From positions 228,944 through 292,943 of the forward strand of contig CAVZKT010000002.1 of NCBI GenBank assembly GCA_963775955.1: a stretch of DNA of 64,000 nt, written 5' to 3'. Shown here one piece after another: positions 6,961 to 29,358 of this stretch (the stretch's first letter is position 1; each line of letters opens with the position of its first letter). The stretch is from Candidatus Moraniibacteriota bacterium. GTDB lineage: Bacteria; Patescibacteriota; Minisyncoccia; Moranbacterales; UBA2206. The notes beneath the pieces were generated by a model. The model ran no database searches. It worked only from the letters and a program-made list of their open reading frames with translations, and had not been told where the DNA came from. The translations under genes and the position numbers were made by a program.

Positions 6961-7037
6961 GCGCTCATAGCTCAGCCTGGTAGAGCAGTTGCCTTTTAAG
7001 CAAACGGTCGCAGGTTCGAATCCTGCTGAGCGCACCA
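6961..7037 (+). tRNA. tRNA-Lys (anticodon UUU), CCA encoded
   Basis: Hand-folded cloverleaf: acceptor GCGCTCA/TGAGCGC, D arm GCTC/GAGC, anticodon loop CTTTTAA, T arm GCAGG-TTCGAAT-CCTGC, then ACCA. Confidence 0.9.
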
Positions 7038-25555: not shown

Positions 25556-26127
25556 ATTCCGAAGCTCGCAAGAGCGAAGGATGGCTAGTACAGAAATGTA
25601 CAAAAACCCTCCTACGTCCGCCTCGGCGGACTTCGGAAGGGTAAAGAGTCTATTCAAACAAAGAATTTATTTTCTTTAAATAAGGTTTATTGATCCGTCT
25701 TCTCCGCCTTCGGCGGATTCGGCGGGATCTAATAAATCTATCGAAAAAAATTATATTTTTTTCGAGATTTATTGAGAGTTTGATCCTAGCTCAGGATGAA
25801 CGCTGGCGGCGTGGATAAGGCATGCAAGTCGAGAGGGTTTAGACCCTCGGCAAACGGGTTAGTAATACATAGGAACTTCCCTGAAGTCGTGAATAATCCG
25901 GAGAAATCCGGAATAATACACGATATGCTCTACGGAGTAAAGATTTATCGCTTCAGGAGGGCCTGTGTCCTATCAGCTTGTTGGTAGTGTAAAGGACTAC
26001 CAAGGCTATGACGGGTAGGGGGTGTGAGAGCACGGCCCCCAACATTGGGACTGAGACACTGCCCAAACTCCTACGGGAGGCTGCAGTCGAGAATATTCGT
26101 CAATGGGCGAAAGCCTGATGGAGCGAC

Positions 26128-26166
<39 letters not shown>

Positions 26167-26858
26167 TTTCTGAGGGAAGAATTTCGTGACGGTACCGCAG
26201 GAATAAGAGGTTACTAACTCTGTGCCAGCAGTAGCGGTAATACAGAGACCTCAAGCGTTATCCGGATTTATTGGGCGTAAAGAGCATGTAGGCGGATATA
26301 TTAGTCAGATGTCAAATCTTCGAGCTCAACTCGAAAACTGCATTTGAAACGGTATGTCTAGAGAGAGTGAGAGATCGATGGAACATATGGTGTAGCAGTG
26401 AAATGCGTTGATATCATATGGAACACCAAAGGCGAAGGCATTCGATTGGCACTCTTCTGACGCTGAGATGCGAAAGCGTGGGTAGCGAATGGGATTAGAT
26501 ACCCCAGTAGTCCACGCCGTAAACGATGCATACTAGGTATTAGGAGAATCGACCCTCCTAGTGTCGTAGCTAACGCGTTAAGTATGCCGCCTGGGAAGTA
26601 CGAGCGCAAGCTTAAAACTCAAAGGAATAGACGGGGATCCGCACAAGTGGTGGAGCATGTGGTTTAATTCGACGGTAAGCGAGAAACCTCACCAGGGCTT
26701 GAAACTTAGCTGCATTGTGCAGAAATGCACAAGCCTTCGAGGGTGCTAAGCAGGCGCTGCACGGTTGTCGTCAGCTCGTGTCGTAAGATGTTCTGTTAAG
26801 TCAGGAAACGAGCGCAACCCCTATCGTGTGTTACATTGTGTCACACGAGACTGCCCAG

Positions 26859-27048
26859 AACTTTGCACAAGAGTGCAAAGTAAATTCCAAATTACAAATC
26901 ACAAATCCCAAACAAATTCAAAATTCTAAAATACAAATTTCAAAACTTTTAAAAAATTGTTTTGGACATTTGAATTTTGGTCATTGGTGCTTGTTTGGAA
27001 TTTGGTGCTTAGGATTTGGTGCTTACTTTGTCACTCGTGGACAAAGTT
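26859..27048 (+). other. 190-nt AT-rich expansion replacing the helix-40 loop of the 16S
   Basis: Sits between ACTGCCCAG and CTGGGAGGAAGGTGGGG, where E. coli has CCAGTGATAAACTGG. It begins and ends with similar hairpins (ACTTTGCAC/GTGCAAAGT and CTTTGTC/GACAAAG). The centre folds as a long A/T helix. Confidence 0.8.
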
Positions 27049-27279
27049 CTGGGAGGAAGGTGGGGATGACGTCAAATCAGCGTGGCCCTTTGACGCCCTG
27101 GGCAACACACGTGCTACAATGGTAAGAACAAAGGGTTGCCAAGCCGTAAGGCGGAGCTAATCCCAAAAATCTGATCTCAGTTCGGATTGAGGTCTGCAAC
27201 TCGACCTCATGAAGCCGGAATCACTAGTAATCGTAGATCAGAATGCTACGGTGAATACGTTCTCGGATCTTGTACTCAC

Positions 27280-28151
27280 AATAAAAGCGCTGGGCAGTTG
27301 TAAATTCTAAGGAGTTTAAATCTCCTCTCCCGATTTCGTCATCGGGATGTAGCTGAAAGGTAGTCGTTATCCGCGAGGATAATGGTGAAGGATCTGGAAG
27401 CAAAAAATAGTCCGACAAAATCCGCCAGTTGGCGGAGCGCGCATCGACCTTCGGAAGGGTGGTGAGCGAAGGGAAGACGCAAGAATAAGCGCAGTCGGAA
27501 TGTTTGGAAAAGAGTTTATAATGACCCCAGGAGATCTTATGCCGTTCTGATTATGTGTTATAATATAATCAGGTAATGAAACTTACGCGGCGTAAGAAGT
27601 CAGCTGAATCGTAGTATCCCGAGTTCTCGGGAGAAGGATTCACTCAGTGCATATGGAATTAAATCCAAATTATATCGTTGGTCTGGTTGATGGAGAAGGA
27701 AGTTTTACAGCTTATGTAAAAAATCCGGATTCAACCAAAAAAGTTCAAAGGCGGACAAAAGTTGAGCCAAGGTTTTTTCTGAAACTTATCGAGAAAGATA
27801 AAAAAATTCTTGATGAGCTTAAAAAATTCTTCGGATGCGGCAATGTTTATTTTCAAAAAGATAAGCGCGCCAATCATCAAAATTGTTATCGTTATGAAGT
27901 AGCCAACCGCAGTGATTTGGAAAAAATAATAGTTCCATTTTTCAAAAGGAATTCTTTGCAGTTACGCTCAAAGAAAAGTGACTTTGAAATGTTTTGTAAG
28001 ATTCTCAAGATGGTTCAAAAAAAGGAACATCTGAAAGAATCGGGATTAAGAAAAATATATAATCTCAAGCAAAAGATGCATTAGAGCTCGTCGTGTGCGG
28101 GAAATCCGCAGGCACGATGGGAACATCAATTCGTAGTTTTACGAAAATATT
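27280..28151 (+). mobile_element. 872-nt intervening sequence in the 16S (E. coli ~1397-1400 region) carrying a homing endonuclease gene
   Basis: Interrupts the universal GYACACACCGCCCGT: TTGTACTCAC | insertion | CGCCCGTCACACC. Contains structured GC-rich RNA flanks and the LAGLIDADG ORF. Confidence 0.85.
27653..28084 (+). CDS. LAGLIDADG homing endonuclease (single-motif type)
   Basis: NPNYIVGLVDGEGSF is the LAGLIDADG motif. 143-145 aa, the size of the homodimeric I-CreI-like class. Located inside the rRNA insertion. Confidence 0.85.
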   Translation: MELNPNYIVGLVDGEGSFTAYVKNPDSTKKVQRRTKVEPRFFLKLIEKDKKILDELKKFFGCGNVYFQKDKRANHQNCYRYEVANRSDLEKIIVPFFKRNSLQLRSKKSDFEMFCKILKMVQKKEHLKESGLRKIYNLKQKMH

Positions 28152-28485
28152 CGCCCGTCACACCAAGAGAGTCGGTAATACCCGAAGCTCCTGTTTTAAA
28201 GCAGGAACCACGGTAGGATCGATGATAAGGGTGAAGTCGTAACAAGGCATCCGTAGCGGAAGCTGTGGATGGATCACCTCCTTTCTAGGGAGAAATGATG
28301 GAATTCCAGAGCACTGCACTCCGCCAGTCGGCGGAAAAGGTATTCAGCGTCAAAACTAAATATCGTGTAGTGTGGATTTCATCCGCTGGTCGAATCTACT
28401 GAATTATCTCAGTAGGTAACAGCAATGCCCAGCAGTGCTATATGAAACTGCAGGTGTGTTTGTACACGCACCGATGGACACTCGG

Positions 28486-28693: not shown

Positions 28694-28951
28694 ATGCCAC
28701 GACAAGACAAAACAGGCCCGATAGGAATGGGACCCGGAACCGGCCGAGGAATGGGTCCTTGCGAAGCAGGTTACGGTCCAGGACTGGGACGGGGACGCGG
28801 ATATGGAAGAGTGATGTGCGGATGGTTCTATCGGAAATATCAGACAATGCCAGAAGAGGAAAGAAAGGATTTGCTCAAAGAAGAAATTGAAGATTTGAAG
28901 CAAGAAATGCAAATGGCGGAAGAAGAACTGAAGGGACTGGAAAAGGAGTAA
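28694..28951 (+). CDS. DUF5320-family protein
   Basis: MPRQDKTGPIGMGPGTGRGMGPC... Gly-rich N-terminus plus a C-terminal coiled coil (EEIEDLKQEMQMAEEELKGLE). ATG 28694 follows AGGCGGGTG. Confidence 0.7.
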   Translation: MPRQDKTGPIGMGPGTGRGMGPCEAGYGPGLGRGRGYGRVMCGWFYRKYQTMPEEERKDLLKEEIEDLKQEMQMAEEELKGLEKE

Positions 28952-29324: not shown

Positions 29325-29345
29325 GGACTAATCGCAAAAGATTGT
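29325..29345. repeat. Third copy of GGACTAATCGCAAAAGATTGT
   Basis: 21/21 identical to 28520-28540. Together the two copies bracket the DUF5320-DUF134 pair. Confidence 0.85.
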
Positions 29346-29358
29346 GAAATTTAGCAAG

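Follow-up and report, generated by a model that had tools for sequence, protein, structure and literature searches.

The 872-nt insert in the 16S rRNA gene of this contig is very probably a compact group II intron, whose ribozyme RNA of ~434 nt carries a LAGLIDADG homing endonuclease gene in domain IV in place of the usual reverse transcriptase gene. The insert type is already known: group II-like LAGLIDADG introns at this 16S hotspot are described in the literature (Tsurumaki 2024; Salman 2012; Liu 2026). The established picture is unchanged, and our analysis of the 64,000-nt stretch (the window) and of its homologues fills in details of a known class. The interrupted gene is made up as follows.

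25768-28286, forward strand: 16S rRNA gene interrupted by the intron (RF00177, 1279.8 bits)
25768-27279 and 28152-~28286, forward strand: 16S exons, the 3' end GGATCACCTCCTTTCT being read from the sequence
27280-28151, forward strand: complete intron of 872 nt, with boundaries fixed by uninterrupted alleles

The split 16S reads CTTGTACTCAC / AATAAAAGCG...GAAAATATT / CGCCCGTCACACC, the insert being exactly 872 nt. The insertion point lies between C1399 and C1400 (E. coli positions in our own numbering, derived from the sequence of the 1392R primer), and U replaces A at 1396. Rfam also places a bacterial 16S gene here, and the insert that the preliminary description had located in the decoding-centre region is borne out. 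The whole-window Rfam scan gave a single 16S match, which ends at 27331, inside the intron, and left the true 3' minor domain (28152-28286) unreported; an Rfam search matched this domain separately at 28152-28245. The intron thus misleads automatic annotation of the 16S gene. It also interrupts the site to which the universal 1391/1392 reverse primers bind, and makes the gene 872 bp longer. The same gene has a further insertion, in helix 40.

The presence of the insert is far beyond chance: at least 67 other Patescibacteria (CPR) genomes have the same insert, located at the same junction. The predicted ligated junction, CTTGTACTCAC[C/T]GCCCGTCA, is present in at least 120 metagenomic 16S genes that are uninterrupted, some of them from relatives whose 16S shares 86-91% identity with this one. 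Because these genes carry the predicted junction, the exon boundaries first drawn from conservation are exact, and comparison with genes lacking the insert has fixed them. They cannot slide, given that the first intron base is A and the last is U, and that a C flanks the intron on either side. Moving the boundary so that the 5' exon ends at U1396 was rejected; CAC would be lost from the mature rRNA, and the uninterrupted alleles read GTACTCACCGCCCG. The RNA on the 5' side of the open reading frame (ORF) measures 367 nt, in agreement with the first estimate of about 370 nt, and the tail 67 nt rather than about 65. This RNA had been called GC-rich, which holds relative to its surroundings (45.8% and 46.3% GC, the ORF having 32.6% and the window 40.3%) but not in absolute terms; the hairpins quoted from it are real and belong to conserved helices.

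CPR rRNAs hold other insertions, of which that in helix 40 is an example, and one could picture the insert as an expansion segment retained in mature 16S rRNA. It interrupts, however, the universally conserved decoding-centre strand at C1399/C1400 with a segment that contains a translated ORF, and many relatives have an otherwise identical site without it. In PMC11270868, moreover, Brown et al. are cited for evidence that insertions of this sort are removed from transcripts. We consider retention exceedingly improbable.

The ORF within the insert encodes the endonuclease.

27647-28084, forward strand: single-motif LAGLIDADG homing endonuclease gene, starting at GTG 27647 or ATG 27653 (143-145 aa)

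As first described, it carries a single motif; it is intact and matches Pfam LAGLIDADG_1 (PF00961) with E=2.6e-17. Identity across the loci fetched is 36-97%. There are 1219 related protein clusters (90% identity), and the best 120 listed are 142-152 aa in length. The best solved relatives are the half-domains of I-SmaMI and I-OnuI (E~1e-33), and more distant endonuclease relatives sit in 23S genes. The CPR endonuclease that Tsurumaki et al. characterised, I-ShaI, was set aside as a counterpart; it derives from a 23S group I-like insertion and not from this site.

A group I intron has to be weighed here as well, with a core concealed by the ORF or by a shift in the boundaries, given that LAGLIDADG genes usually reside in group I introns and that one of the 23S genes with a related endonuclease, L079, has two group I introns elsewhere in the gene. 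We also take the segment UGCGGGAAAUCCGCAGG to be superficially like the classical group I P/Q elements. As a P/Q element it was rejected: it is the upper helix of domain V, and it follows the ORF without room for P6-P9. RF00028 has no match in the window at E<=10, which supports the original remark that group I hallmarks are missing, and none inside the insert in 20 homologous loci; the same search does find group I introns elsewhere in those loci, for example in L013. With the boundaries fixed, the 5' exon ends in C and the intron in U, so that this insert has neither a 5'-exon U paired to G in P1 nor a terminal G, and no P3-P9 core was found in it. The fold that covariation supports is that of a group II intron, and the probability of a group I intron is negligible.

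The preliminary description is thus upheld in seeing an endonuclease insertion of the CPR type with exact boundaries that is not group I. Its view that the excision mechanism is unclear from sequence alone does not stand: the RNA has the marks of a group II-type ribozyme, for which an exon-final C and an intron-final U are expected, because the EBS1-IBS1 pairing sets the 5' splice site and the 3' end of a group II intron is a pyrimidine.

Among the Rfam models, RF01998 (group II D1-D4) matches the window at 27577-27639 with 30.4 bits, below its cut-off of 35, and reaches 35.5-42.4 bits in 7 of 23 homologous loci. RF00029 has no match in the window at E<=10; in a homologue its domain V half scores 28.9 bits (cut-off 40) and its domain VI half is unmatched. 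The alignment of homologues yields six helical domains in the order I to VI with the ORF in domain IV, and 105 covariation-supported base pairs, 82 of them in domains I-III and 23 in domains V-VI, with the stem of domain IV additional. Domains I-III are 95.9% paired, and 69 of the 82 pairs show compensatory changes; their covariation is 0.695 versus 0.08-0.135 in slid controls, and 0/500 shuffles were as high. RNAalifold gave 83 pairs, 70 with a compensatory change. The 23 pairs of domains V and VI are 97.7% paired and 14 are compensatory. A further covariation scan, of the unpaired columns, was confined to strict Watson-Crick pairs; a version permitting G.U pairs was discarded, swamped by chance matches.

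Several features speak against the group II assignment. The window stays below the Rfam group II cut-offs, its triad is CGU, and domain VI has no conserved branch adenosine. The intron contains no reverse transcriptase, and in place of the canonical ends (5' GUGYG, 3' AY) it starts with AAUAA followed by AAGCG and ends with A-N-U. We treat the GUGYG end as typical and not defining, because genuine group II introns that carry 5' insertions are on record (PMC4424553, PMC13190283). The subclass is disputed, being IIB1 in PMC4424553 and IIC in PMC13190283. The elements of the 5' end and of exon recognition are the following.

27280-27284, forward strand: A-rich 5'-terminal linker AAUAA, between the 5' splice site and the motif replacing GUGYG
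27285-27289, forward strand: 5' motif A-A-G-C-G (family consensus A-N-G-C-G), directly before the first domain I helix
27290-27530, forward strand: domain I, with closing helix 27290-27294/27526-27530
27297-27307/27512-27522, forward strand: long helix of domain I
27310-27326, 27328-27347 and 27352-27401, forward strand: hairpins of domain I
27405-27416/27494-27505, forward strand: domain I arm with the exon-binding stem-loop
27448-27472, forward strand: exon-binding stem-loop, stem CCUUCG/CGAAGG, all six pairs covarying
27462-27466, forward strand: EBS1 GUGAG, at the end of the loop, preceded by G27461 (delta/EBS3-like base)
27275-27279, forward strand: IBS1 CUCAC, the last five 5'-exon bases (16S 1395-1399, U at 1396), complementary to GUGAG
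28152, forward strand: first 3'-exon base C1400, partner of G27461

In the alignment the linker and the first two motif positions together span 7-10 nt across homologues, and a "5' terminal linker" is also reported for the related rns-1396 family (PMC13190283). The GCG of the 5' motif is invariant across homologues and lies 7 nt into the intron in the window; the motif would be the positional equivalent of the G-U-G-Y-G of canonical introns. Both exon contacts expected of a group II intron are found. EBS1 GUGAG and IBS1 CUCAC are mutually complementary and each is invariant in all introns found; as neither ever varies, complementarity is the evidence for this pairing. The second contact is a pair to the first 3'-exon nucleotide (delta-delta' or EBS3-IBS3). 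The position of G27461 tracks the first 3'-exon base in 68/68 introns (G:C in 65 and A:U in 3, with no two of the three A:U introns being nearest neighbours); of about 600 columns, no other shows this behaviour.

Archaeal 16S introns with LAGLIDADG genes occur near this rRNA region, and an intron of that type would be cut at a bulge-helix-bulge by a splicing endonuclease. Here the 16S of the host is of bacterial type, the consensus fold leaves the junctions single-stranded, and the only covarying link between the two junction regions is the single delta contact, which makes such an origin hardly credible. A bulge-helix-bulge drawn from the AAUA...UAUU ends was rejected for want of covariation support.

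Domains II to IV complete the RNA upstream of the catalytic domain and enclose the gene.

27531-27601, forward strand: domain II, basal helix of 13 pairs, 98.4% paired
27578-27582, forward strand: domain II loop GAAAC, which pairs with the domain VI loop
27595-27606, forward strand: conserved AGAAGUCAGCUG, comprising the 3' side of the domain II base, J2/3 (about 27602-27605) and the first domain III base
27606-27641, forward strand: domain III hairpin with the conserved UAGUA/GAAGG internal loop, both helices covarying, matched by RF01998
27643-28086, forward strand: domain IV, enclosing the ORF, stem CUC (27643-27645) with GAG (28084-28086)

The segment AGAAGUCAGCUG is nearly invariant in the alignment and is the core of the RF01998 match. 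The basal stem of domain IV is 100% paired, with compensatory changes in three homologous loci (L031, L035 and L053), and the stop codon of the ORF falls within its 3' strand. The remainder of the intron is taken up by domains V and VI.

28087-28121, forward strand: domain V, with a 10-bp lower helix, a 2-nt bulge (A28110 G28111) and an upper helix capped by GAAAU
28089-28091, forward strand: catalytic-triad equivalent C28089-G28090-U28091 in domain V, with a G.U wobble at G28090
28125-28148, forward strand: domain VI, with a 3-bp basal helix, a 5'-strand AA bulge, a 5-bp helix and the loop AGUUUU
28136-28140, forward strand: domain VI loop bases that pair with domain II
28149-28151, forward strand: last three intron bases AUU (A-N-U in the family, the terminal U invariant)

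The 15 pairs of domain V are 99.4% paired, 6 of them compensatory, and the geometry of a group II domain V, a hairpin of about 34 nt whose 2-nt bulge lies five pairs above the triad, is kept in 56/56 distinct sequences. The cap is GAAAU and not a 4-nt GNRA loop. In the homologue L036, RF00029 aligns the domain V half as AGCCGUAUGcgagGAAAcucgCACGUACGGUU against CGCCGUAUGCGG-GAAAUCCGCACGUACGGUG, with CGC in place of AGC. The triad of the window, CGU, is neither AGC nor CGC; its third pair is compensated (U-A) and the bulge base is changed to match. The third triad pair is C-G in 41 sequences and U-A in 16, in perfect covariation with the second bulge base, which is a pyrimidine with C-G and G with U-A. 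This switch is seen even within the close pair L011 and L012. An alternative register, which takes the AGC of an invariant GAGC upstream of domain V as the triad, was rejected, because its distance to the bulge would be too great by four pairs and the RF00029 alignment puts CGC at the triad.

In domain VI all 8 pairs are compensatory. Its loop pairs with that of domain II: the pairing is 93.2% complete versus 18-57% when slid, and all 5 positions pair in 43/57 sequences, compared with a mean of 20.9 and a maximum of 31 in 2000 shuffles. A bulged branch adenosine, which group II introns typically but not universally have 7-8 nt from the 3' splice site, is not conserved on the 3' strand of domain VI; about half of the sequences have this strand paired throughout, and the sole conserved bulge, AA, is on the 5' strand.

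An RNA of group II descent may also have lost autonomous catalysis, and would then be removed with the assistance of proteins of the host or of the intron, or excised by an RNase without ligation so that the 16S is left fragmented at the decoding centre. The missing canonical 5' motif and branch adenosine, the scores of the window below the Rfam thresholds and the CGU triad are compatible with such a loss; bacteria do have fragmented rRNAs and RNase III-excised intervening sequences, and PMC11270868 raises this for other CPR insertions. Purifying selection nevertheless keeps just those parts that catalysis and the holding of both exons require, namely the domain V geometry, the compensated triad pair with its bulge base, EBS1 and the base that tracks the 3' exon, and binding of the 3' exon has no purpose unless the exons are ligated. 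Nor does the insert resemble an intervening sequence processed by RNase III: it lies in a single-stranded conserved segment, its ends do not pair into an RNase III-type stem, and no covarying pairing joins them. Loss of catalysis is therefore unlikely.

For an active group II intron, we infer self-splicing, exon ligation and a hydrolytic first step from fold and exon-pairing features that can be read in the sequence. The 16S precursor RNA would fold into the six domains that covariation supports. The domain I loop G-GUGAG would then pair with CUCAC plus the first 3'-exon C and hold both splice sites at the active site, as the observed complementarity to the exons and the G:C-to-A:U covariation suggest. 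The triad (CGC/CGU), the 2-nt bulge and the base triple from bulge to triad are sequence features of domain V, which together with J2/3 would form a metal-binding catalytic centre. Splicing would probably start by hydrolysis rather than branching, because the A-rich linker replaces GUGYG and domain VI is without a branch adenosine; we propose this step by analogy with those group II introns of fungal mitochondrial rRNA that bear insertions at the 5' end, and with the in vitro behaviour of group IIC introns. The 5-bp pairing between the domain II and domain VI loops, itself evident from covariation, may position the 3' splice site for exon ligation. Ligation would restore GUACUCAC-CGCCCGU in the decoding centre, and a linear intron would be released. 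At the DNA level, a homodimer of the endonuclease would cut uninterrupted 16S alleles and repair would copy the intron in, that is, DNA homing and not retrohoming. This route is suggested by the protein family, and suitable empty target sites do exist; the candidate endonuclease target on the uninterrupted 16S is CTTGTACTCACCGCCCGTCACACC.

Insertions of this kind were collected by Tsurumaki et al. 2024 (PMC11270868), who list 53 group II intron-like insertions, 39 of them with an endonuclease gene, at the 16IS9 hotspot ("position 1400"). The statement in the preliminary description that CPR 16S genes carry insertions with LAGLIDADG genes is thus matched by insertions of the same kind, labelled "group II intron-like", at the same CPR hotspot. 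The element shares with that set the gene, the position (1399/1400), the host radiation, the LAGLIDADG_1 domain, the Rfam group II signal (RF01998) and the lack of a reverse transcriptase, and it is a member of the 16IS9 set in every respect testable here. The closest loci are labelled Parcubacteria, Moranbacteria and other Patescibacteria. The classification in PMC11270868 is by Rfam match only, with approximate boundaries and without secondary structure, exon-binding sites or splicing chemistry.

A second related group is the rns-1396 group II-LAGLIDADG family, which occurs in Thiomargarita and related bacteria and in a few CPR (Liu et al. 2026, PMC13190283; Salman et al. 2012). The Thiomargarita nelsonii intron FR690945 has 56-60% identity over domains I-III and keeps 63/82 consensus pairs, as judged from the first 345 nt, which were aligned, of the 399 nt given in the supplement. 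The rns-1396 introns and this element have a homologous ribozyme, an A-rich 5' linker with GCGC after it, a domain IV endonuclease with a single motif, an exon-binding loop with G and a 5-nt EBS1 at its 3' end, and no EBS2. They differ in their target. The rns-1396 introns sit after A1396 (..GUACA / CACCGC) with EBS1 UGUAC, whereas the insertion point of the present element is three bases further downstream (..GUACUCAC / CGCCC); its EBS1 is GUGAG, and its hosts have U1396. As all 68 scorable introns lie after C1399 with EBS1 GUGAG, we treat the element as belonging to a sister lineage of rns-1396 and not as a member. Liu et al. place EBS3 elsewhere, in triplets that often cannot pair with the exon C, whereas covariation here points to the base adjoining EBS1.

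Some fungal mitochondrial rRNA group II introns, such as the Grifola frondosa SSU intron, also have LAGLIDADG ORFs and 5'-terminal insertions (Li et al. 2011, cited through PMC4424553). They resemble the present element in their rRNA host, an endonuclease instead of a reverse transcriptase, nucleotides before the GUGYG position and the loss of EBS2 and the branch adenosine (PMC4424553). The endonuclease described here is closest to fungal mitochondrial enzymes of the I-SmaMI/I-OnuI type. The fungal introns differ in being mitochondrial, of subclass IIB1 and on other ribozyme backbones, mostly with double-motif enzymes. Hydrolytic splicing of these fungal introns was reportedly shown by Li et al.

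Group IIC introns, represented by O.i.I1 of Oceanobacillus iheyensis, share with the element an RNA of ~400 nt, the CGC triad, a 3-bp basal helix of domain VI and contacts between domains II and VI. The likeness presumably extends, judging by the O.i.I1 sequence, to the J2/3-domain III signature AGAAGUCAGC...UAGUA...GAAGG. By contrast, group IIC introns carry a reverse transcriptase gene, are inserted downstream of transcription terminators, have a GUGYG-like start, keep the branch adenosine and have EBS3 in the coordination loop. In vitro they self-splice almost only by hydrolysis (PMC4748821). Group I LAGLIDADG introns in bacterial and organellar rRNA genes are alike in the kind of endonuclease, in DNA homing and in their preference for conserved rRNA sites, but differ entirely in ribozyme fold and chemistry, and the insert showed no group I feature.

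Our minor additions are the 3-nt shift downstream of rns-1396 with a re-specified EBS1 and the Watson-Crick contact between the loops of domains II and VI. Taken together, the features allow a joint reading that we offer tentatively and rate slightly below even chances: an undescribed CPR sister of rns-1396 of the same design, moved by three nucleotides through a change of EBS1 from UGUAC to GUGAG, with 3'-exon recognition adjacent to EBS1, a kissing loop and splicing by hydrolysis only. Recognition of the 3' exon would then be like that of subgroup IIA on a IIC-like scaffold, contradicting the published EBS3 assignment, and a 5-bp Watson-Crick kissing loop would replace the usual tetraloop-receptor contact between domains II and VI. 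Judging by its endonuclease clusters, which number more than 1,200, this could be the most abundant endonuclease-carrying lineage of group II introns in bacteria.

The family offers dozens of natural variants of what appears to be a minimal, branch-less group II ribozyme moving by DNA homing. Covariation among them is clean for the catalytic base triple, the 3'-exon recognition and the contact between domains II and VI, and the family would also be a natural case of a group II intron whose target has shifted by three nucleotides. Exact boundaries and a mechanism permit correct annotation and comparison of CPR 16S genes. The host range also differs in one instance from that published: PMC11270868 lists no 16S insertions in Peregrinibacteria, whereas one of our loci labelled Peregrinibacteria (L043) carries the intron.

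The bacterial 16S rRNA gene begins at 25768 (RF00177, 1279.8 bits in the window scan), and its conserved strand CTTGTACTCAC is interrupted at 27279/27280, continuing as CGCCCGTCACACC from 28152, where a separate Rfam match to the 3' minor domain begins. Counted from the 1392R primer sequence, the interruption falls between E. coli positions C1399 and C1400, and the window has U, not A, at position 1396. Re-reading of the sequence, together with Rfam and Pfam, recovered every feature of the preliminary description in its place. The parts of the insert, with the domains assigned below, are as follows.

27280-28151 (+), insert, exactly 872 nt
5' RNA part of the insert, 367 nt, 45.8% GC
27290-27530, domain I, large and multi-helix
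27531-27601, domain II
AGAAGUCAGCUG, conserved junction between domains II and III
27606-27641, domain III
27647/27653 to 28084, ORF held in domain IV, 32.6% GC, Pfam LAGLIDADG_1 (E=2.6e-17)
67-nt tail, 3' of the ORF
28087-28121, domain V
28125-28148, domain VI

The endonuclease gene is intact and conserved. The protein collection holds 1219 relatives, the best 120 of which share 74-97% identity with it and measure 142-152 aa. Scanning one genome per species gave 79 loci, and in 72 of these an insert of 820-1090 nt follows TGTACTCAC. All introns that could be scored unambiguously (68, the window counted in) are preceded by CUUGUACUCAC, start AAUAAA-N-GCGC-NNNN-GCAG and end in ..GUGGGAAC, a hairpin and A-N-U, after which the exon resumes as [C/U]GCCCGUCA. 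The hosts are labelled Parcubacteria, Moranbacteria, Magasanikbacteria, Falkowbacteria, Peregrinibacteria and other Patescibacteria. One intron-bearing locus, L043 (JACRID010000057), is labelled Candidatus Peregrinibacteria, and protein P0011 likewise bears the label Peregrinibacteria; Tsurumaki et al. 2024 (PMC11270868) reported no 16S insertions in Peregrinibacteria. Four remoter relatives of the endonuclease (L076-L079, 36-41% identity) sit in 23S rRNA genes, and that of L079 carries two group I introns, so this protein lineage is common to group I and group II hosts.

A metagenome search for the junction expected after ligation, CTTGTACTCAC[C/T]GCCCGTCA, returned at least 120 uninterrupted matches. 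Those listed include 16S genes 86-91% identical to that of the window, and two of them give full-length, unbroken Rfam 16S matches. The boundaries, which had been placed by conservation, are therefore exact, U1396 is a normal feature of the host, and empty target sites occur in nature. Position 1400 is C in 115 of the 120 matches listed and T in 5; U likewise replaces this universally conserved decoding-centre C in three of the homologous loci (L053, L062, L065).

The 5' RNA parts (57 sequences) and the 3' tails were aligned separately. For domains I-III, RNAalifold predicted 83 pairs, 70 of them with compensatory changes. In the named structure 95.9% of cells are paired, 69 of 82 pairs show double changes, and the covariation score is 0.695, as against 0.08-0.135 with slid partners; none of 500 shuffles reached it. 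In domain IV the ORF is enclosed by a 3-bp stem, CUC/GAG, which shows compensatory changes in three sequences and contains the stop codon in its 3' strand. The tail forms two hairpins (23 pairs, 97.7% paired, 14 compensatory). The overall layout is the group II plan. A scan for strict Watson-Crick pairing among unpaired columns yielded, besides helix extensions and the 3'-exon contact, a single pair, between domain II and the loop of domain VI. Extended, it joins GAAAC of domain II (27578-27582) to GUUUY of that loop (28136-28140). The pairing covaries as UAAAC/GUUUA, GGAAC/GUUCC, GUAAC/GUUAC, GAAUC/GAUUC and AGAUU/AAUCU, with 93.2% of cells paired against 18-57% when slid, and all five positions pair in 43 of 57 sequences (shuffled mean 20.9, maximum 31). 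Group II introns are known to have contacts between these domains, which are tied to the second splicing step (PMC4748821).

The lower helix of domain V has an invariant base (C-G, U.G, C-G, G.U) followed by five pairs that covary and a U.G; it is topped by a 2-nt bulge, an upper helix of 4-5 bp and a GAAAU cap. In the homologous locus L036 the domain V consensus of the group II Rfam model, AGCCGUAUGcgagGAAAcucgCACGUACGGUU, lines up with CGCCGUAUGCGG-GAAAUCCGCACGUACGGUG (28.9 bits, E=1.9e-4 for the stretch), and this alignment identifies CGC as the triad of 41 sequences. The other form, CGU, occurs in 16 including the window (C28089 G28090 U28091), and there the third pair is U-A, not C-G. In 57 of 57 sequences C-G goes with a pyrimidine as second bulge base and U-A with G, a switch seen even within the close pair L011/L012. 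A base triple in the catalytic triplex reportedly joins the bulge base to this very pair in the Oceanobacillus iheyensis crystal structure; on that condition the covariation would be a direct signature of the group II active site.

Exon recognition can be assigned to the loop of a covarying stem (27448-27453/27467-27472), whose last six bases are G-GUGAG. The invariant GUGAG is complementary to CUCAC, the likewise invariant end of the 5' exon. Among about 600 alignment columns, only that of the G just before GUGAG follows the identity of the first 3'-exon base (G:C in 65 introns, A:U in 3, without exception), and the three A:U introns are not nearest relatives of one another. The loop is thus a single uninterrupted guide that reads the ligated junction CUCAC|C, which explains both the C at the end of the 5' exon and the fact that no group I rule applies. 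That the insert breaks this rule had been noted in the preliminary description, and a group I intron is indeed contradicted by the data, as RF00028 finds nothing at E<=10 in the insert of the window or in those of its homologues. A bulge-helix-bulge intron is also contradicted by the data, as is retention of the insert in mature rRNA; Brown et al., as cited in PMC11270868, found such insertions removed from transcripts.

The intron departs from the canon in several respects. Its 5' end is an A-rich linker, and of GUGYG just GCG is kept, immediately before the first helix. The basal helix of domain VI is 3 bp long, and the domain carries an AA bulge on the 5' strand; on the 3' strand the tail alignment shows no bulged A that is conserved. 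The window falls short of every Rfam group II threshold (RF01998, 30.4 bits against 35), while 7 of 23 homologues attain the RF01998 cut-off. A decayed ribozyme, dependent on a helper or merely excised, is nevertheless unlikely, since selection has kept both 3'-exon binding and the catalytic triple. The excision mechanism had seemed unclear; from fold, domain V and exon contacts, we read the insert, whose coordinates are exact, as a homing-endonuclease-bearing group II intron. Group II two-metal catalysis would then be expected. As the intron lacks the branch adenosine and the canonical 5' end, like those fungal rRNA introns that have 5' insertions (PMC4424553), the first step is probably hydrolytic, resembling that of group IIC introns in vitro (PMC4748821). 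Exon ligation would restore the decoding-centre strand, and a homodimeric endonuclease would mediate DNA homing.

In the tail alignment the penultimate intron base (column 73, 28150) varies together with the third basal-helix pair of domain VI (column 69, 28146): where G, partnered by C, is replaced by A, this base is U instead of A. The window has A28146 with U28150. Four introns (L039, L042, L060, L072) carry an extra structured insertion of 50-95 nt in the tail, after the domain V 3' strand (..GCUACG) and before the conserved GGGGAAC, where it would interrupt the domain V base.

Introns of this kind are already known, and the family is catalogued in CPR 16S genes. Tsurumaki et al. 2024 (PMC11270868) listed 53 'group II intron-like' CPR 16S insertions, all at 'position 1400' (16IS9), with LAGLIDADG genes in 39 and reverse transcriptase in none, and a group II-LAGLIDADG intron in Thiomargarita 16S is attributed to Salman et al. 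2012 in PMC13190283 and PMC4424553. The bacterial 'rns-1396' family of Liu et al. 2026 (PMC13190283) is built on a IIC backbone, with a single-motif endonuclease placed in domain IV, a 5' terminal linker in every member, and no EBS2; according to its tables it inserts after A1396 (..CUUGUACA | CACCGC), with G-UGUAC in the loop. Over domains I-III its Thiomargarita nelsonii seed (first 345 of 399 published nt aligned) is 56-60% identical to the CPR introns and keeps 63 of 82 consensus pairs, which makes the window intron a homologue of the family. It sits three bases downstream of the rns-1396 site, with EBS1 re-specified. Neither this shift, nor where the base that binds the 3' exon lies, nor the kissing loop between domains II and VI was found in the accessible literature. 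In Table S4 of PMC13190283 the 'EBS3' triplets of CPR members (UUA, AAA, UAG) are unable to pair with the exon C; in the listed EBS1 strings, however, UGUAC is always preceded by G, in agreement with the adjacent-base 3'-exon contact described above.

The whole-window Rfam scan returned one 16S match, 25768-27331, ending inside the intron because the model's 3' end (the anti-Shine-Dalgarno region) was forced onto intron sequence; automatic annotation would thus cut the gene short and overlook its real 3' minor domain at 28152-28286. The only other Rfam match is a tRNA (6961-7034), with no 23S or 5S rRNA gene in 28290-64000 or 1-25767; small protein-coding ORFs begin near 28695 and 29046. The same 16S gene has a second insertion at the helix 40 tip (26858-27053, between GACTGCCCAG and CTGGGAGGAAGG; 196 nt, 32% GC), which folds as a single long imperfect hairpin (-78.7 kcal/mol, z=-7.4). 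It seems to be present also in the intron-less relative L163 and may be either a retained expansion segment or cut out. A 24-nt inverted repeat (25532-25555/28516-28539, 96% complementary) flanks the gene about 230 nt from each end and is probably a precursor processing stem. Its downstream arm (GGACTAATCGCAAAAGATTG) has a third copy after another 805 nt, at 29325-29347, beyond the next two small ORFs, where 0.04 copies are expected by chance.
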